Origin: a virus
IMG/VR virus record: IMGVR_UViG_3300045988_167509
Location: 1-5,008 of that record
Strand: one strand, 5' to 3'
Length of the DNA stretch: 5,008 nucleotides
Below the pieces are notes generated by a model. The model saw only the letters and a program-made list of their open reading frames with translations, ran no database searches and was not told the DNA's origin. Shown piece after piece: positions 1-5,008 of this stretch. Within the stretch, counting starts at the first letter, position 1. Each line of letters starts with the position of its first letter. The position numbers and the translations under genes are program-made.

Positions 1-63
1 AACGAACATAGGGGCGAAAATTCCGGAAATGTCATTTACAACAGACAAAGGGCTCACCTCCAT
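1..63 (-). CDS. Partial duplicate copy (N-terminal 21 codons) of the VP2-like gene, present because of the terminal redundancy
   Basis: The minus-strand ATG at 63..61 is the same ATG as 4972..4970 (MEVSPLSVVNDISGIF...). The ORF runs off the window start. This is an assembly/linearisation artefact, not a second gene. Confidence 0.5.
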   Translation of the reverse strand, partial: MEVSPLSVVNDISGIFAPMFV

Positions 64-99
64 CAGAGATAAAAAAAGTGCAATAACGTAAAAAAAAAT
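1..99. repeat. Terminal redundancy of the linearised circular genome; identical to 4910..5008
   Basis: I compared 1..99 with 4910..5008 base by base and they are identical. This gives a circular unit of 4909 nt. The anchor 'cat' at 61..63 matches 4970..4972. Whether the identity extends beyond the window ends cannot be seen. Confidence 0.9.
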
Positions 100-111
100 A
101 GGAAAGCACAT

Positions 112-161
112 TCAAAAACTCCGAACGGAGCTTAATACCGCAAATGCGGCGCTCCGTCCGG
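112..161 (-). terminator. Putative rho-independent terminator downstream of VP1
   Basis: On the minus strand, 161..121 forms a GC-rich stem (121-131 ccgaacggagc pairs with 151-161 gctccgtccgg, 10 of 11 bp). It carries an internal mini-hairpin, ccgc-aaat-gcgg at 138..149. It is immediately followed, at 120..112, by AGTTTTTGAA and further T-runs (CCTATTTTTTTTTACG). It lies 15 nt after the VP1 stop at 176..178. A second 6-bp GC stem, 165-170 ggccgg / 182-187 ccggcc, straddles the VP1 stop. Confidence 0.45.
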
Positions 162-175
162 AATGGCCGGCGAAA

Positions 176-1879
176 TCACATCCGGCCAAGGTGAGCCGGA
201 ATAGAATACATAGGCATAGGACGAGTATGCAGAACGTCAAAAGCGAAATCACCGAAAATCTGATTGGAAACAGAGGAAGAAACAGTAAGAACACGATCAA
301 CATTTGCAACATCCTCTCTAATCCAAGAATCAGAAAGAACAGGAGGGGAAGAATAATTGTCCGCAAGCGTCCAAGTGAAAAGGGAATTCTTCACATTCGG
401 GCGAAGCTCGCCAGAGACGCGCGAAGGTTTGTATCTATAATCAGACCAAGCTTCCTGATAAGCGAACACATCACCAACCGGATTATCGTCCGAATAAAAG
501 ATTTCGTCACGGTAAACGGGTTGCTCTCCAATCGAACTAAACACGGGAAGAAAGAAATCAAAAACAGAATCACGCATCCAAAAACGTTCAAGACCCTGTG
601 CATAAGTGTGACGATAACGAACAACACCGAGACAGAAAAGAAAACCATGTTCAGTAAAAGACTTACGAACATCAAAATGAACATCAGCGGTGACAGAGTT
701 AGCGCCCAAATCACCAAGAAAATCATTCTCCGTCTGGGCAGTGTTAGCCACAGCCGAAACATTCAAACGAATGCGATTCCCTCCGAGATACTCGGGAATC
801 TGCAGACGGGCATCAGGCGAGATGACGCCAAAATGATTACGCAGAATTTCGGTATAGCGAGAACCGCCGCGCGCATTTCGCTCTAAATACTCCTGAGCGG
901 CGAAGGCATAACGAAGATCATTGACCGTGAAATTTGTTGCCGAAGAACCGGGAACATCAACTTTTAAATTGGATGGAAAAGCATAAACTTTACCTTCCGT
1001 AAGTTCGCCACTGTGCGAACCATAACGCCAAGAATAATCACCAGATTGACCGTCAATCTGAACGAAACCGGGCTGCTGCAAAGAACCAAAATTCGACCAA
1101 GAACCATCACTGTTATAGACCTTAGAGAAGAAACGCAAAGGAGAAGAACCGGGAGTAAAAGTCTGATCGTCGGCGGTAATTACAGGAAAAGAACCGCCAG
1201 AAAAAGAAGGAATAGGGATATTGACGGCCTGACCTTTCTGAGGGGAAGGAAGAGCAGAAGTGAAATAATCGTGAAGCTTCGAAGCCTTGAAAGGCTTACC
1301 GCCTAGCGGCACATCGACAAGATAATTAGAACCGTTTGAGCCGGTAAGGGAGGAATCACCAACATAAACATTAAGAGGGTCAGTCAAATTCTCGTCACGG
1401 AAAAACGTATTGCATATCAAAGAATAACCGCGGAAAGGAAGAGCAGACGGGGCTTTCTTCGTATCAGTAACCGATACACCAACGGGAATGCCCATATAGT
1501 CAGCAATAGTACCAGTCTGCCAACCGCCATCAGGCGGAATGAGCTTCGGCACAGAATAAGAAGTCGTGGGCGCCCAAGCACTCTGAGTATTTTCGCCTTG
1601 AAATTGCTGCCAATGCTCCCAAGTAAGACGGTTAGGAACAAAAAACCAATATGTATCAAAGAAAAGATCATCAAAGATCGGGGAATGAAGAGTCTGGAGA
1701 CGAACAAGCTTGCTCATGGTAATCTCCACGGAATCACCAGGCAAAATCTCATCTACATAAAGGGGAACAACGTCACCAACGTTAAAAGACGTAGTATGAC
1801 GACTGGGACGCTTAAAAATCGAACGCTGAATATTAGCTGACGGAAGAATAGAGAAATGAGAAGAATCATTCCGAGACAT
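176..1879 (-). CDS. Major capsid protein VP1 (Microviridae F-like), 567 aa
   Basis: A 567 aa ORF. The N-terminus MSRNDSSHF...SFNVGDVVPLYVDEILPGDS and the block RYTEILRNHFGV resemble conserved gokushovirus VP1 blocks as I recall them. The start ATG at 1879..1877 is preceded by AAGGAGGT (1896..1889) with a 9-nt spacer. A Gly/Ser-rich central segment is consistent with the variable insertion loop of gokushovirus VP1. Confidence 0.95.
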   Translation of the reverse strand: MSRNDSSHFSILPSANIQRSIFKRPSRHTTSFNVGDVVPLYVDEILPGDSVEITMSKLVRLQTLHSPIFDDLFFDTYWFFVPNRLTWEHWQQFQGENTQSAWAPTTSYSVPKLIPPDGGWQTGTIADYMGIPVGVSVTDTKKAPSALPFRGYSLICNTFFRDENLTDPLNVYVGDSSLTGSNGSNYLVDVPLGGKPFKASKLHDYFTSALPSPQKGQAVNIPIPSFSGGSFPVITADDQTFTPGSSPLRFFSKVYNSDGSWSNFGSLQQPGFVQIDGQSGDYSWRYGSHSGELTEGKVYAFPSNLKVDVPGSSATNFTVNDLRYAFAAQEYLERNARGGSRYTEILRNHFGVISPDARLQIPEYLGGNRIRLNVSAVANTAQTENDFLGDLGANSVTADVHFDVRKSFTEHGFLFCLGVVRYRHTYAQGLERFWMRDSVFDFFLPVFSSIGEQPVYRDEIFYSDDNPVGDVFAYQEAWSDYRYKPSRVSGELRPNVKNSLFTWTLADNYSSPPVLSDSWIREDVANVDRVLTVSSSVSNQIFGDFAFDVLHTRPMPMYSIPAHLGRM

Positions 1880-1974
1880 TATTCATTAACCTCCTTCTGA
1901 GATTCAAGAAGCTCTTTGAGAAGATCAAAGAGAGACGGGAGAATTGCAAGCAGAAACTTTTTGAGAAATTCCAT
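1879..1974 (-). CDS. Unlisted 31 aa amphipathic peptide ORF (MEFLKKFLLAILPSLFDLLKELLESQKEVNE), translationally coupled to VP1
   Basis: The minus-strand ATG is at 1974..1972. It is preceded by GGAGGT, embedded in the C-terminal codons of the 148 aa ORF, with an 11-nt spacer. The stop TAA at 1881..1879 overlaps the VP1 ATG by 1 nt (TAATG). The peptide has a hydrophobic N-half and a charged C-half. It is below the ORF-track length cut-off. Confidence 0.35.
   Translation of the reverse strand: MEFLKKFLLAILPSLFDLLKELLESQKEVNE
1889..1896 (-). promoter_or_regulatory. Shine-Dalgarno AAGGAGGT for VP1
   Basis: Minus-strand AAGGAGGT lies 9 nt upstream of the VP1 ATG. It sits inside the last codons (QKEV) of the 31 aa upstream ORF. 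Confidence 0.8.
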
Positions 1975-1976
1975 AA

Positions 1977-2423
1977 TCAAGAATCACCTCCTTCCGGAGA
2001 AGAACCAACAGGGGGAGAGCCGACAGGGGGAGAATCAGAAACGGGTGCACCAGCAGAAACCCAATCCTTCAGAGAATTAAACTTCGAACGCAATTCGTGA
2101 GGAAGAAGGTCAAAAGCACGCGATGCCTCAATGCCGACATCAAGAAACTCTCGAAGATTACCGGGAATTTGCGAACCATCGCCAAAAACGGCGGGCGCTC
2201 GACAGAGCGCGGAAAAGTCACCATTCTCAAGCTTATTGAGAATCAATGAAAGATCACACTCATCAGCATGAGAATTAATCTCATCCTTGATGTTGACCTT
2301 AGCAAGCGGAAGCAACTCAAAAGAACCATTTGGAAGAAGATGCGGAGAAAAAACAGTGTGCTCAGAGTCACCGCAAGCGGAAAAGGGAGCAGAAGGCATG
2401 AGAGACGCAAAAGAATTTCTCAT
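1977..2423 (-). CDS. Hypothetical 148 aa protein immediately upstream of VP1; possibly an internal scaffolding (VP3-like) protein by size and position only
   Basis: The ATG at 2423..2421 is preceded by GGAGGT with a 9-nt spacer. The ORF-track TTG at 2429 is only 3 nt from the SD, so it is an unlikely start. The start overlaps the stop of the 74 aa ORF by 1 nt (TAATG). The C-terminus has a tandem SPPVGSPPVG repeat. I do not recognise sequence-level homology. Confidence 0.6.
   Translation of the reverse strand: MRNSFASLMPSAPFSACGDSEHTVFSPHLLPNGSFELLPLAKVNIKDEINSHADECDLSLILNKLENGDFSALCRAPAVFGDGSQIPGNLREFLDVGIEASRAFDLLPHELRSKFNSLKDWVSAGAPVSDSPPVGSPPVGSSPEGGDS
2007..2036 (-). repeat. Imperfect 15-nt tandem duplication encoding SPPVG-SPPVG at the C-terminus of the 148 aa ORF
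   Basis: Plus strand 2007-2021 aacagggggagagcc and 2022-2036 gacagggggagaatc match at 12 of 15 positions. Confidence 0.8.
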
Positions 2424-2647
2424 TAGCAAACAACCTCCGGCGGAATAACCGCCGTAACAGTGCCAGAATCCATATCCATATCAGCAACATGATAAAGGGA
2501 AAGATCAGCAACAGAAAGAGAAAGATCAGAATTGGTTTTGAGAAAAAACTGCCAATCACGAACAGCTTGTTCAACAGAAGGACAAGTGATAGGGTCAGCA
2601 AAACCAGTGCGAGCATCACGAACGGCAAAAACAGGACGAATAAACAT
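2423..2647 (-). CDS. Hypothetical 74 aa protein (MFIRPVFAVRDARTGFADPITCPSVEQ...)
   Basis: The ATG at 2647..2645 is preceded by GGAGGT with a 9-nt spacer, the same 12-mer leader (GGAGGTTGTTT) as the 148 aa ORF. Its start overlaps the TGA of the upstream 53 aa ORF (TGATG). Its stop TAA overlaps the next ATG. Confidence 0.5.
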   Translation of the reverse strand: MFIRPVFAVRDARTGFADPITCPSVEQAVRDWQFFLKTNSDLSLSVADLSLYHVADMDMDSGTVTAVIPPEVVC

Positions 2648-2808
2648 CAAAAAACAACCTCCGTTTCAATTTCATCATCAAGAACAAAAACAACATCATC
2701 ATCAGGGAAAAAACGACGAAGAGAACGCCCTAGCTGATTTCGCTCTGGCACATTAGAGAAAGAAGCAGAGAAGAAAAGGAAATCCCCAACACGAACAAAA
2801 CAAGTCAT
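2647..2808 (-). CDS. Hypothetical 53 aa protein (MTCFVRVGDFLFFSASFSNVPERNQLGRSLRRFFPDDDVVFVLDDEIETEVVF), not in the ORF track
   Basis: I translated the minus strand by hand. The ATG is at 2808..2806, with GAGGAG 5 nt upstream. The start overlaps the TAA of the 68 aa ORF by 1 nt. The stop TGA at 2649..2647 overlaps the ATG of the 74 aa ORF. The region is 162 nt, 53 codons plus stop. Confidence 0.4.
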   Translation of the reverse strand: MTCFVRVGDFLFFSASFSNVPERNQLGRSLRRFFPDDDVVFVLDDEIETEVVF

Positions 2809-3014
2809 TAAATCTCCTCACAAAAAACAAAAAAATGAGAAGTGTTCATAAAATCACCACACCGAGCAGAAGAAGAAGAAAGAAAATCGACAAAACAAGA
2901 AACTGCATAAATCTCAGAACAAGAAGCAAAAGGAGAAAGACAACGTACAACATCTTCCTTGCAAGAGCAGCGATCATAAACAGAACTGTCTTTGCGACGA
3001 ACAAGAACAACCAT
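2808..3014 (-). CDS. Hypothetical Cys-rich 68 aa protein (7 Cys; MVVLVRRKDSSVYDRCSCKEDVVRCLSPFASCSEIYAVSCF...)
   Basis: This is the minus-strand ORF from the track, trimmed to the ATG at 3014..3012. It has a weak SD (AAAGG) 9 nt upstream. Its stop is coupled (TAATG) to the 53 aa ORF. It is in the same frame as, and 15 nt downstream of, the Arg-rich ORF stop. Confidence 0.4.
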   Translation of the reverse strand: MVVLVRRKDSSVYDRCSCKEDVVRCLSPFASCSEIYAVSCFVDFLSSSSARCGDFMNTSHFFVFCEEI

Positions 3015-3029
3015 TTTCAAAAGCCTTTC

Positions 3030-3146
3030 TCAAAGGCGAATACCGCCTCGATAGTTAACAACGCCAAGGTTAACGTCCTTAGTGCGCGAAGCAGTGCGAG
3101 CAAAGAAACGACGATCAGAACGGCGACGAACACGAAATCGATTGAT
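3030..3146 (-). CDS. Candidate small basic DNA-binding protein (J / ORF8-like): 38 codons, 11 Arg plus 1 Lys, no canonical start codon
   Basis: The minus-strand frame INRFRVRRRSDRRFFARTASRTKDVNLGVVNYRGGIRL* is open from the TAG at 3194..3192 to the TGA at 3032..3030. The only plausible initiator is ATC at 3146..3144, 6 nt after the GGAGGT that overlaps the Rep stop (TAGGAGGTG). The size and charge resemble microvirus J/ORF8 packaging proteins. There is no in-frame ATG, GTG or TTG. Confidence 0.3.
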   Translation of the reverse strand: MNRFRVRRRSDRRFFARTASRTKDVNLGVVNYRGGIRL

Positions 3147-3157
3147 AAAAACACCTC

Positions 3158-4111
3158 CTAAATTTTGTTCTTCTTCAGACGAGAAAGAGCACTATTTTGT
3201 GAAGCTTCTTTCACCTCCAGATAATCAGTTAAACCAAGATCAGTGTACTGCAATTCAAGAAGCTGCCTATCATCAGCAAAACGCTTCCTTGACTTGACAA
3301 TACTTTTATACCACTCGTCACCGAAGATGTCAATACCTTTCTTCAAAAGAAATTTAGGTGTAGTACACTTTCCTCTATGCTCATCGCCGAGGAAATGAAA
3401 ATAGTCATCCTTTGCATCAGGATGATCTTGCCAAAAATAACCAGCAAGACCGGGCCGACGCGACATAGTGGCAAATTCGGGCTCAATATTATGTTCAGCA
3501 TAAAAAATAGCATTTTTTCCAGTCTGCTTTTTCAAGCAATAACGGGCAACATAAGCACAAGTACGCCACGAAACATTAGCAAGAGAACACTGACCTTTTT
3601 TCCAAAGTCTATCAGACAAAAGAGCAGAAACAAAAACAGGATCACCAAGCTCATTTTTGAAAAGCAAACGAGCATCAGAAAAGTCGGAAAGCGAAAGACC
3701 AAAGACAATCAAATGATAATGCGGCCGAGCAGTTTTGTCGCCGTACTCACCAGCACAAAAAAAACGAATCTCTTTATCTTGAAAATAGAAGCGCAAGCGC
3801 TTTAGAAAGAGCTGAGCATCACGTTTATCAAGAGAAAATATAGGGGTATCGTTTTCAGTAATCAAGCCAATAGGCACATTCTCGGGCGAATACGTAAGCG
3901 TAAGAAAAACGGCAGTCTTTGAATGATCAAGCTCCATCATCATTCGATCAGCCCACTGGCGGGAACGATCGAGACGGCAGCCAATGCACTGTCCACAAGG
4001 AATAGAAACCTCAGTAAGATCAAGACGTTCACCAGTAGCACGACCGGGAAGAATCTTAATCTTCTTTTCAATTGGGTCATAAACTCCAACCATAGGCTTA
4101 TAGCAAGACAA
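3158..4111 (-). CDS. Rolling-circle replication initiation protein (VP4/Rep, phiX174 gpA-like), 317 aa
   Basis: It carries the motifs FLTLTY (motif 1), PHYHLIVF (HUH, motif 2) and YVARYCLKK (motif 3, Y..K). An N-terminal Cys cluster, CGQCIGCRLDRSRQW, is as I recall typical of gokushovirus VP4. The start is TTG at 4111..4109 with AAAGGAGG 7-8 nt upstream. The first in-frame ATG, at 4093, is 26 nt from the SD. Confidence 0.93.
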   Translation of the reverse strand: MSCYKPMVGVYDPIEKKIKILPGRATGERLDLTEVSIPCGQCIGCRLDRSRQWADRMMMELDHSKTAVFLTLTYSPENVPIGLITENDTPIFSLDKRDAQLFLKRLRFYFQDKEIRFFCAGEYGDKTARPHYHLIVFGLSLSDFSDARLLFKNELGDPVFVSALLSDRLWKKGQCSLANVSWRTCAYVARYCLKKQTGKNAIFYAEHNIEPEFATMSRRPGLAGYFWQDHPDAKDDYFHFLGDEHRGKCTTPKFLLKKGIDIFGDEWYKSIVKSRKRFADDRQLLELQYTDLGLTDYLEVKEASQNSALSRLKKNKI

Positions 4112-4119
4112 AGTTTTTT

Positions 4120-4127
4120 CCTCCTTT
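4120..4127 (-). promoter_or_regulatory. Shine-Dalgarno AAAGGAGG for Rep (serving the TTG start)
   Basis: On the minus strand, GGAAAGGAGGAAAAAACTTTG reads directly into the Rep ORF. Confidence 0.75.
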
Positions 4128-4132
4128 CCTGT

Positions 4133-4172
4133 CAGTCAGCACAGTTACATCAAGTAGAACATGTGCTGACTG
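4133..4172. promoter_or_regulatory. Perfect 10-bp inverted repeat (cagtcagcac / gtgctgactg) with a 20-nt spacer in the Rep leader
   Basis: 4133-4142 is the exact reverse complement of 4163-4172. It lies 22-60 nt upstream of the Rep start. It could be an operator, an RNA hairpin or an origin element. Confidence 0.6.
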
Positions 4173-4174
4173 CA

Positions 4175-4219
4175 TCCATTGGCTATGCAAAACGCTATCG
4201 CGTTTAACACAGCCAATGG
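4175..4219. promoter_or_regulatory. 9-bp inverted repeat (tccattggc / gccaatgga) enclosing copy 1 of the 32-bp direct repeat, with a nested 6-bp hairpin
   Basis: 4175-4183 tccattggc is the reverse complement of 4211-4219 gccaatgga. Inside it, aaacgc-tatc-gcgttt forms a perfect 6-bp stem with a 4-nt loop. Confidence 0.6.
4182..4213. repeat. 32-bp perfect direct repeat, copy 1 (gctatgcaaaacgctatcgcgtttaacacagc)
   Basis: It is identical to 4229..4260. Each copy contains the palindrome aaacgcTATCgcgttt. Confidence 0.9.
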
Positions 4220-4228
4220 AGAAAAAAC

Positions 4229-4260
4229 GCTATGCAAAACGCTATCGCGTTTAACACAGC
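4229..4260. repeat. 32-bp perfect direct repeat, copy 2
   Basis: It is identical to 4182..4213. Copy starts are 47 bp apart. Confidence 0.9.
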
Positions 4261-4303
4261 GTTTTATAACTACTAGAGACTCGAAATCACTTCTTTCTAT
4301 CTA

Positions 4304-4972
4304 CTAATTAAGGACAGAATCAAGCGCTTGAAGACCTGCTTTCGCGCCGTAATAAACAGAAGCTGAAAGCTGAAAATTTTTGGTTGCTGCCATAGTGGCA
4401 GCACTGGCAAGAGCTGCGGCAGCAGACTGAATATTACCGTTATGAAGCAACGAACGAAAAGAAAAATCATTGCTCTTAACAGAAGAAGCGGAAGAGCCGT
4501 AACCACCGGAAGAGCCGTAACCAGAAAGACCGGCAGAAGCAGTAGAAGCGCCGCCAACGTTACCAAGGGCAAGAACAGGATTTAAACCAGCAGCTTTAAG
4601 ATCAGCAACACGACGCTGTATAGCGGTATTATCAAGCGCTTCTTGATAAGCAGTTGAAACACCAAGACCGTAATGTTTAGCAAGATCGGCGTTGAGATAA
4701 TCAACGGCAGGAGAGGAAACATTACCAGAAAAACCACTGCCGTTGGAAGGCTGAACGGACGGCGTTTTCTGCGAATCTGCAGAACTACCGAAAAAGAGCT
4801 CAAGAATACCGGGCGACTTCTGAGCATTCATCTGAGAAGCGCCACCAGGTGAAAAAGGCGCTAGAACGTAAGAGGCAATGGAAGAACCAACAGCAGAAGC
4901 AGAAGAAGGAACGAACATAGGGGCGAAAATTCCGGAAATGTCATTTACAACAGACAAAGGGCTCACCTCCAT
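4304..4972 (-). CDS. Minor capsid / DNA pilot protein (VP2-like), about 217-222 aa, Gly/Ser/Ala-rich
   Basis: This ORF follows VP1 on the coding strand. The segment AKHYGLGVSTAYQEALDNTAIQRRVADLKAAGLNPVLA resembles the conserved block of gokushovirus VP2 as I recall it. The start is ambiguous: the ATG at 4972 has no SD. An in-frame TTG at 4957..4955 sits 8 nt after GGAGGT. A further upstream ATG, equivalent to 111..109, would add a 16 aa hydrophobic extension. Confidence 0.75.
   Translation of the reverse strand: MEVSPLSVVNDISGIFAPMFVPSSASAVGSSIASYVLAPFSPGGASQMNAQKSPGILELFFGSSADSQKTPSVQPSNGSGFSGNVSSPAVDYLNADLAKHYGLGVSTAYQEALDNTAIQRRVADLKAAGLNPVLALGNVGGASTASAGLSGYGSSGGYGSSASSVKSNDFSFRSLLHNGNIQSAAAALASAATMAATKNFQLSASVYYGAKAGLQALDSVLN
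4490..4524 (-). repeat. Tandem 18-nt repeat (cggaagagccgtaacca x2) encoding the GYGSS-GGYGSS low-complexity segment in VP2
   Basis: 4490-4506 and 4508-4524 are identical 17-mers separated by 1 nt. Confidence 0.85.
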
Positions 4973-5008
4973 CAGAGATAAAAAAAGTGCAATAACGTAA
5001 AAAAAAAT
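4910..5008. repeat. Terminal redundancy, identical to 1..99
   Basis: Base-by-base identity with the window start. Confidence 0.9.

Follow-up and report, generated by a model that had tools for sequence, protein, structure and literature searches.

A hairpin with a phiX174-type loop motif is a candidate viral-strand origin in the VP2–Rep gap of a gokushovirus genome

Where does a gokushovirus begin to copy its circular single-stranded DNA (ssDNA) genome? The question is raised by IMG/VR virus record IMGVR_UViG_3300045988_167509, analyzed here over positions 1 to 5,008 (this whole stretch is called the window), in which a 192-nt gap between the VP2 and Rep genes (4112–4303) is dense with repeats. 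An earlier annotation made from the letters alone, the sequence-only reading, had proposed that two 32-nt direct repeats in this gap are iterated Rep-binding sites of a replication origin or operator, and had stated that origins are essentially undefined for gokushoviruses. An origin-type element beside Rep is indeed very probable; however, the basis for it is not the 32-mers but a neighboring hairpin, H3, which is conserved and carries a phiX174-like motif. As for the second statement, neither H3 nor any gokushovirus origin was described in the full-text literature searched, which did not include the original Chp2 and phiMH2K papers, where an earlier mention is possible. Overall, we lean towards reading the gap as a three-hairpin replication control region, in which H3 would be the viral-strand origin cut by Rep and the two 32-mer hairpins, H1 and H2, would be accessory.

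Every repeat that the sequence-only reading had described was confirmed at its given position. The recognizable genes of the window are all encoded by the minus strand, which that reading had missed, so in functional terms the gap is read as its reverse complement. The 32-mer GCTATGCAAAACGCTATCGCGTTTAACACAGC occurs twice with 100% identity (4182–4213 and 4229–4260), and each copy contains the hairpin AAACGC-TATC-GCGTTT. Copy 1 is flanked by the inverted repeat TCCATTGGC/GCCAATGGA, as had been claimed, and longer arms that are 86% complementary can be drawn around it (4175–4195/4200–4220). Copy 2 is likewise flanked by an inverted repeat, AAAACGC/GCGTTTT (4224–4242/4247–4265), which had been overlooked; therefore, the coding strand of the gap presents three long hairpins in series. 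H1, the distal 32-mer hairpin (copy 2; 4265–4224, minus strand), has 19-nt arms and a 4-nt loop, and six consecutive T stand at its 3' foot on the coding strand (4222–4227), a terminator-like context. H2, the proximal one (copy 1; 4220–4175, minus strand), combines 21-nt arms with a 4-nt loop, and 2 nt separate it from H3 (4172–4133, minus strand). H3 had been given last, as a plain 10-bp inverted repeat, CAGTCAGCAC/GTGCTGACTG (4133–4142/4163–4172), which we confirmed and which extends to 11 bp when A4143/T4162 is added. Its 5' arm (4172–4162) and 3' arm (4143–4133), with three more pairs beyond a bulge, enclose the loop TCTACTTGAT. The sequence-only reading had missed that this loop contains ACTTGAT (4149–4155, minus strand), which is identical to the phiX174 origin heptamer and occurs once in the window genome, within the gap and not in the Rep gene. 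The 3' flank of H3, TGACAG (4129–4134, minus strand; 14 nt past CTTGAT), is the window version of a family motif, TGACAC(C), and a candidate Rep-binding determinant. When folded as ssDNA, the coding strand of the gap reached −49.4 kcal/mol, against −19.1 ± 2.9 for shuffled sequences (z = −10.5, 0 of 200), and the complementary strand folded 5 kcal/mol more weakly. The structure of the gap is far beyond chance.

A blastn search of the gap against GenBank phages retrieved 185 microvirus records, all of which matched at approximately 4125–4176 of the window, leaving the 32-mers without a hit. The sequence that these records have in common, read on the coding strand, is a hairpin with a loop ending in (T/C)ACTTGAT and a 3' arm followed by TGACAC(C). 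The 16-mer CTTGATGTAACTGTGC was present in at least 120 IMG/VR contigs of microvirus size, and, among the matches listed, 117 of 121 carry it on the strand that encodes the capsid; four non-microvirus contigs with the 16-mer were discarded as chance matches in coding sequence, without the hairpin. To avoid selection on the motif, 80 genomes were picked by VP1 similarity alone. A rule using only sequence (CTTGAT, then GACAC within 30 nt) gave 59 sites, 49 of which close a perfect stem of 7–18 bp, whereas only 8 of 271 other CTTGAT sites, serving as the control, close such a stem. These CTTGAT–GACAC stems have 29 distinct arm sequences. When 14 diverse elements were aligned, 12 of the 14 stem pairs were changed on both sides and 90.8% of cells were paired, a result reached by none of 500 shuffles, and pairing dropped to 30–40% in slid registers. 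The spacing from CTTGAT to TGACAC is constant at 14–15 nt, independent of the stem sequence, and columns G42, A43, C44, and A45 of alignment A5 are invariant.

A covariance model built from the 14 diverse elements placed the element of the window at 4124–4173 on the minus strand (44.9 bits, E = 7.5e-9) and found it in 70 of the 80 VP1-chosen genomes (~88%), so that the comparison of relatives for a conserved hairpin, which the earlier annotation had proposed, came out positive for H3. All 14 pairs were changed on both sides among 77 distinct model-aligned sequences, in an alignment that leans towards the model structure. A simple perfect-stem descriptor had missed many elements that the model recovered, including the bulged stem of the window, and a relaxed descriptor returned mostly noise. 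H3 is a family-wide structure in which the loop motif is conserved and the stem is kept by compensatory change. With the model filters off, the top matches in three cultured reference phages, all on the deposited strand, were at 2900–2953 of Chp2 (E = 0.005), where a 14-bp stem of unrelated sequence encloses the loop TCTACTTGAT, at 3294–3345 of phiMH2K (E = 0.013, loop CTACTTGTT), and at 508–556 of SpV4 (E = 0.025, loop ACTTGTT). Seven E. coli chromosomes also carry the element, and in the one opened it lies within a gokushovirus prophage, between VP3 and VP1. The H3 loop and flank are thus kept in phages of Chlamydia, Spiroplasma, Bdellovibrio, and E. coli and in gut and marine phages, and their conservation over such different hosts points to a phage-encoded partner and not a host one.

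Several further features of the element were observed among the relatives, which are referred to below by our own L numbers. In L209 (E. coli strain C5, NZ_CP010122; prophage at ~2876–7162 of the locus), the hairpin is GGCACAGTGCCCTACTTGATGTAACTGTGCCAGGTGACACC, at 4499–4543 on the coding strand. Genomes with variant loops form four groups (L168, L174, L182, L187, and L201; L167, L189, L197, and L199; L162, L165, and L166; L188 and L193), and the CTTGTT loop recurs in phiMH2K and SpV4. In L109, the 3' arm and flank are duplicated in tandem downstream of the hairpin, with TAACTGTGCTAGGTGACACCAG present twice. The TGACAC flank doubles as the 5' arm of a second, downstream hairpin (e.g., GACACC...GGTGTC) in L008–L010, L054, L064, L073, L094, L107, L122, and L124. 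In L018, L028, L032, L048, L060, L072, L075, L080, and L116, GTCACCTA(GC), 30–40 nt upstream, pairs with the flank after the hairpin, (GC)TAGGTGAC; this pairing encloses an upstream GC hairpin together with H3, a possible three-way junction.

The loop motif relates H3 to the viral-strand origin of phiX174. In the phiX174 GenBank record, rep_origin is annotated at A4306, in CAACTTG|ATATTAATAACACTATAGACCAC, and cleavage at G4305/A4306 within a 30-nt origin has recently been restated (bioRxiv 10.64898/2026.07.25.740675). When the gokushovirus consensus CTACTTGATGTAACTGTGCTAGGTGACACC was set against this 30-nt origin without gaps, 15 of 30 positions matched and GAC stood at the same spacing, although the alignment is suggestive only because it was counted by eye. 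The Rep protein of the window has an HUH motif (HYH at residue 131) and the sequence YVARY (residues 187–191), whose counterpart in phiX174 protein A is YVAKY (Y343/Y347). The HUH blocks of the two proteins aligned with a pairwise E value of 2e-4, and the Rep proteins of the two subfamilies, on the gokushovirus and phiX174 sides, are considered monophyletic (PMC6668415). Solved structures yielded nothing useful for the window Rep. By the position of the motif, Rep is predicted to cleave the minus strand between G4151 and A4150. In the proposed mechanism, the H3 stem would expose the loop TCTACTTG|AT as a single strand, and Rep, an HUH/YxxxY endonuclease homologous to phiX174 protein A, would recognize this loop and the TGACAG flank 14 nt downstream. 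Rep would then cut at G4151/A4150 and become joined to the 5' end, the freed 3'-OH would prime synthesis displacing the T-rich coding strand, and Rep would re-ligate the displaced strand into the circle that is packaged.

The two origins would nevertheless differ in how the motif is presented. H3 and the phiX174 origin have in common a core, (A)CTTGAT, at the actual or predicted cleavage site, a GAC block ~15 nt downstream, and homologous Rep proteins with HUH and Y-x-x-x-Y motifs. However, the phiX174 origin lies within gene A and has an AT-rich spacer and no hairpin, whereas H3 is intergenic, the 3' arm of a covarying 7–18-bp stem serves as its spacer, and the nick motif is in the loop. A nick motif in the loop, a covarying stem, and an intergenic position beside rep are features of the nonanucleotide hairpins of CRESS-DNA viruses, whose circular ssDNA genomes encode a Rep, such as geminiviruses, circoviruses, and nanoviruses. 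In these viruses the orientation of the hairpin also sets the encapsidated strand, a likeness that the T-over-A bias suggests for H3. Unlike H3, the CRESS-DNA origins have another loop sequence and flanking iterons, which are no general feature beside H3, and the gokushovirus Rep, which lacks a helicase domain, is of a different HUH lineage. Judging from these sequence comparisons, H3 is most likely an origin hairpin of the rolling-circle type, in a new variant that carries a phiX174-type nick motif in its loop.

The orientation of H3 provided a further line of evidence. In 22 of the 70 model-positive genomes, the whole element, both loop reading and flank, is opposite to all genes (L151–L157, L159–L163, L165, L166, L171, L177, L181, L183, L191, L200, L204, and L205); L004 (MG945492), L066, and L091 are also inverted. 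VP1, VP2, and VP4 were co-oriented in the 17 inverted genomes checked, and the element in the inverted loci examined lies just past the Rep stop or between VP2 and Rep. The coding-strand value of (T−A)/(T+A) ranges from −0.16 to +0.27 in all 48 sense-oriented genomes and from −0.27 to −0.41 in all 22 inverted genomes; the window itself has 37% T and 19% A on its coding strand (+0.32). At the third codon positions of VP1, the averages in the descriptor-detected subset were +0.49 (34 sense) and −0.25 (17 inverted). The T-over-A bias therefore tracks the orientation of the hairpin and not that of the genes in 70 of 70 genomes, in statistics that ignore kinship, with the inverted genomes falling in a few clades. 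ssDNA phages are T-biased at synonymous sites, which has been attributed to C-to-T pressure on single-stranded DNA (PMC3278643). The CTTGAT-bearing strand is always the T-rich one, as expected if that strand is displaced and packaged, and the bias supports a replication role of H3 that would be tied to strand identity. A more specific proposal, which we make tentatively, is that H3 is the gokushovirus viral-strand origin, that its orientation marks the packaged strand, and that about a quarter of the relatives (22 of 80) are negative-sense microviruses. Separately, seven inverted genomes (L171, L177, L181, L183, L191, L204, and L205) have 13–20-bp hairpins of alternating purine–pyrimidine GC sequence (GCGCGTGCGCGC..., −36 to −42 kcal/mol), which lie 20–60 nt 5' of the element, in the element's own orientation.

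The 32-mers showed a very different distribution. They were confined to five genomes of the window lineage: the window, L126/L127 (86–88% nucleotide identity), L128, L129, and L207. The comparison for a conserved 32-mer that had been proposed thus ended with this lineage. The core of the 32-mer was found only in a sister contig in IMG/VR, and in one more lineage member among metagenome contigs. It was absent from one representative genome per bacterial species, so there is no sign of a host-derived repeat or a host binding site. Within the lineage, the 123 nt holding H1, H2, and the start of H3 differ from L126 by one insertion or deletion, and the 38 nt past the VP2 stop by approximately ten differences. 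H2 is retained in all five members. The loop of H1 and H2 varies in sequence and also in length (GATA, GTA, GGA, and GAA), and the inner stem is unchanged across the lineage. One outer pair of H1 (columns 48/87) runs from A-T through G.T to G-C, and the remaining stem changes in H1 and H2 are A-to-G opposite T, except for one T-T mismatch in H2 of L129. In the H1/H2 alignment, 99.6% of cells were paired and four pairs were changed on both sides, which 2 of 500 shuffles equaled, and wobble pairs are possible on the coding-sense strand only. This pattern of change favors structure over sequence as the property that the lineage appears to keep. Outside the lineage, sense-oriented relatives have unrelated GC-rich hairpins in the place of H1 and H2, and in these genomes the 70 nt 5' of H3 fold to −12.3 kcal/mol, whereas 70-mers drawn at random from those genomes fold to −6.8 (p = 7e-9). 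In the 200 nt upstream of H3, ~5 of 140 lineages have direct repeats of 14 nt or longer. L053, L104, and L112 have direct repeats of their own, of at least 40 nt, within 200 nt upstream of the hairpin, and the repeat of L053 contains a small hairpin (AGCCC...GGGCT).

These comparisons weakly favor reading H1 and H2 not as Rep iterons but as two copies of an accessory hairpin that is specific to the lineage and forms on a single strand of DNA or RNA. The role of this hairpin is probably that of a terminator, a complementary-strand priming signal, or both. The complementary-strand origin of rolling-circle plasmids and Ff phages has its place on the displaced strand, next to the nick hairpin on its 5' side. 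H1 and H2, standing directly 5' of the presumed nick hairpin, would become exposed last as the strand is displaced. Both the plasmids (pT181, with its IR-II nick hairpin) and the Ff intergenic region (hairpins B and C beside the nick hairpin D) have structured, imperfect hairpins at this place, of lineage- or host-specific sequence; the likeness of H1 and H2 is one of position, and no sequence similarity was found. The hexamer TAGCGT, which runs from the loop into the 3' arm in both 32-mer hairpins (4196–4201 and 4243–4248; minus reading ATAGCGT), matches the CS-6 loop hexamer of the ssoA-type single-strand origins of plasmids, a type defined by a long imperfect hairpin, CS-6 (TAGCGT/A), and an RS-B site. 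We rejected such an assignment: the window, L127, and L128 have TAGCGT, whereas L129 reads GAGCGT/AAGCGT and L207 reads AAGCGT, and because of this loss the match is probably a coincidence. The ori(−)/T_F hairpin of phiX174 is an intergenic hairpin after a structural gene in which a PriA site overlaps the terminator, providing a precedent for a dual role of H1, although it is far from ori(+), whereas H1 and H2 form a duplicated pair directly beside the candidate nick site.

H1, with its T-run, may also terminate the VP1–VP2 transcript. The sequence-only reading had offered a VP2 terminator and main promoter as an alternative function of the repeats. Its promoter half found no support, as no sigma-70-like promoter was detected in the gap, and its terminator half may hold for H1 only. 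The run of six T is present in three of the five relatives and is degraded to TTCTTCC / TTCTTTCC in L128 and L129, and neither H2 nor H3 has a T-tract. Promoter and terminator scans called nothing in the gap, with genome-wide counts at the level of shuffled sequences, and Rfam, run on the whole window at a permissive threshold, gave a single sub-threshold chance match, outside the gap.

Other explanations of the gap have to be weighed against a Rep-cut H3 with accessory hairpins. If the 32-mers were double-stranded Rep-binding sites that set origin specificity or repress rep, as geminivirus and circovirus iterons do, one would expect what the window offers at first sight: two perfect direct repeats beside a candidate nick hairpin and just upstream of rep, a palindrome in each that could seat a dimer, and strong conservation within the lineage, with one change in 123 nt versus ~13% genome-wide. 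However, these sites are absent outside five closely related genomes, long direct repeats beside the hairpin are rare in general, and the conserved loop and TGACAC flank, which are likelier Rep determinants, are common to genomes with unrelated GC-rich hairpins in that place. The substitutions, moreover, preserve the pair or wobble and not the sequence, the loop is free even in length, and the 47-nt spacing of ~4.5 helical turns would put the two sites on opposite faces of the duplex. We thus consider the iteron proposal of the earlier annotation, which the comparison with relatives did not support, unlikely. Slightly less likely again is that H3 is the complementary-strand origin, used by a host primase, PriA, or RNA polymerase in the manner of G4 or phiX174 ori(−), and that Rep nicks elsewhere. 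For very small microviruses, hairpins between genes have been put forward as possible negative-strand origins (PMC9865509), phiX174 ori(−) is itself a hairpin overlapping a terminator (bioRxiv 10.64898/2026.07.25.740675), and the strand bias fits this possibility as well as it fits a viral-strand origin. On the other hand, the conservation of the loop and flank over unrelated hosts points to a phage-encoded partner, the loop holds the Rep cleavage heptamer of phiX174 with phiX-like spacing to GAC, and no other ACTTGAT exists in the genome.

A purely transcriptional gap, with RNA hairpins acting as a VP2 terminator, a protective 3' end of the messenger RNA (mRNA), or a regulator of rep translation and with no part in DNA replication, seems improbable. 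It would account for the place of H1, ~40 nt past the VP2 stop and followed by six T, for the G.U-compatible substitutions and the better fold of the coding strand, which suit RNA, and for the end of H3 lying 5 nt from the rep ribosome-binding site. It would not explain why H3 is turned against all genes in 22 of the 70 relatives, with loop and flank kept on the antisense strand, and a conserved loop on a freely covarying stem is unexpected in a terminator; the T-tracts missing from H2 and H3, the T-run not kept in L128 and L129, and the empty scans of the gap also speak against it. Finally, it is very improbable that H3 is a dif-like or attachment site for site-specific recombination, as used by enterogokushoviruses for integration. 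Its palindromic architecture with a central spacer recalls such sites, and gokushoviruses can integrate by Xer recombination at dif-like non-coding motifs (PMC7062461). Recombinase sites, however, keep their arms and vary the spacer, whereas the arms of H3 vary and its center is conserved; dif-like motifs were found in 48 of 855 gokushovirus genomes (PMC7062461), compared with H3 in ~88% of our sample, and the element of the E. coli prophage is internal, between VP3 and VP1, and not at the prophage ends. An Xer/dif-like site was therefore dropped.

The reading of the gap as a replication control region centered on H3 also has points that weigh against it. The covariance model found no match in 10 of the 80 VP1-chosen genomes, its E values for Chp2, phiMH2K, and SpV4 are modest, and Chp1 yielded no convincing copy of the hairpin even with the filters off. 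The loop is not invariant (CTAGAT, CTTGTT, CTTGTC, and CTTGTA/CTCGTA occur), and the position of the element varies: it mostly stands between VP2 and Rep, yet it precedes VP1 in ~11 of 123 loci and follows Rep in the inverted clades. The identity with phiX174 rests on six to seven bases and one spaced trinucleotide. The link between orientation and strand bias ignores phylogeny, with the 22 inverted genomes in a few clades, and the bias fits a viral-strand and a complementary-strand origin alike. The 5-kcal/mol asymmetry of the fold suits an mRNA role equally well. For H1 and H2, the evidence comes from only five related genomes, and the inverted group has no general structure upstream of the element (−6.9 versus −5.7 kcal/mol, p = 0.87), which weakens the idea of a complementary-strand origin that moves together with H3.

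The gap belongs to a microvirus genome that is complete, circular, and 4909 nt long; the window contains it cut with an overlap, as bases 1–99 recur exactly at 4910–5008. All of the following genes are on the minus strand. VP1, the major capsid protein, is encoded at 1879–176 (Pfam Phage_F, E = 2e-137) and VP2 at 4972–4304, with its stop codon TAG (4304–4306) forming the upstream boundary of the gap. The open reading frame (ORF) for Rep/VP4 extends from 4111 to 3158 (Pfam PF23343, E = 1.1e-17); its start signals (4109–4124) are the ribosome-binding site GGAGG (4124–4120) and, seven bases after it, a TTG start codon (4111–4109). VP5 is located at 2650–2423 and the scaffold protein VP3 at 2429–1977. 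A near-identity search of the whole window genome against GenBank phages gave four short matches only, one of them on H3. The gap had been described as the only sizeable non-coding region, which is doubtful: 112 nt lie between VP1 and VP2 (64–175), and 2809–3157 contains only poorly conserved small ORFs. The latter stretch, from Rep to the next conserved ORF on the minus strand, may be variable or partly non-coding; a 45-amino-acid ORF at 3154–3017 has a match in L126 only, and a 70-amino-acid ORF at 3020–2808 is 44–54% identical to sequences in two relatives. The adjacent 53-amino-acid ORF (2808–2647) shows 84–91% identity.

Gokushoviruses are among the most abundant ssDNA phages in gut and marine viromes, and an element delimited to 50 nt, for which a cut site is predicted, makes the question of their origin directly testable. 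E. coli gokushovirus prophages of the kind that bears the element have already been revived in the laboratory (PMC7062461). H3 would connect the origin of phiX174 with the hairpin-type origins found in other rolling-circle replicons, with the same recognition core in a different presentation, and it could serve annotators as a marker of genome start and strand. If the orientation of the hairpin does mark the packaged strand, the inverted microviruses, which belong to several clades and have genomes of 5.3–6.2 kb, would have every gene antisense to the encapsidated DNA, an arrangement not described for the family; antisense-packaging microviruses would thus be predicted, and strand polarity would become readable from metagenomic assemblies.

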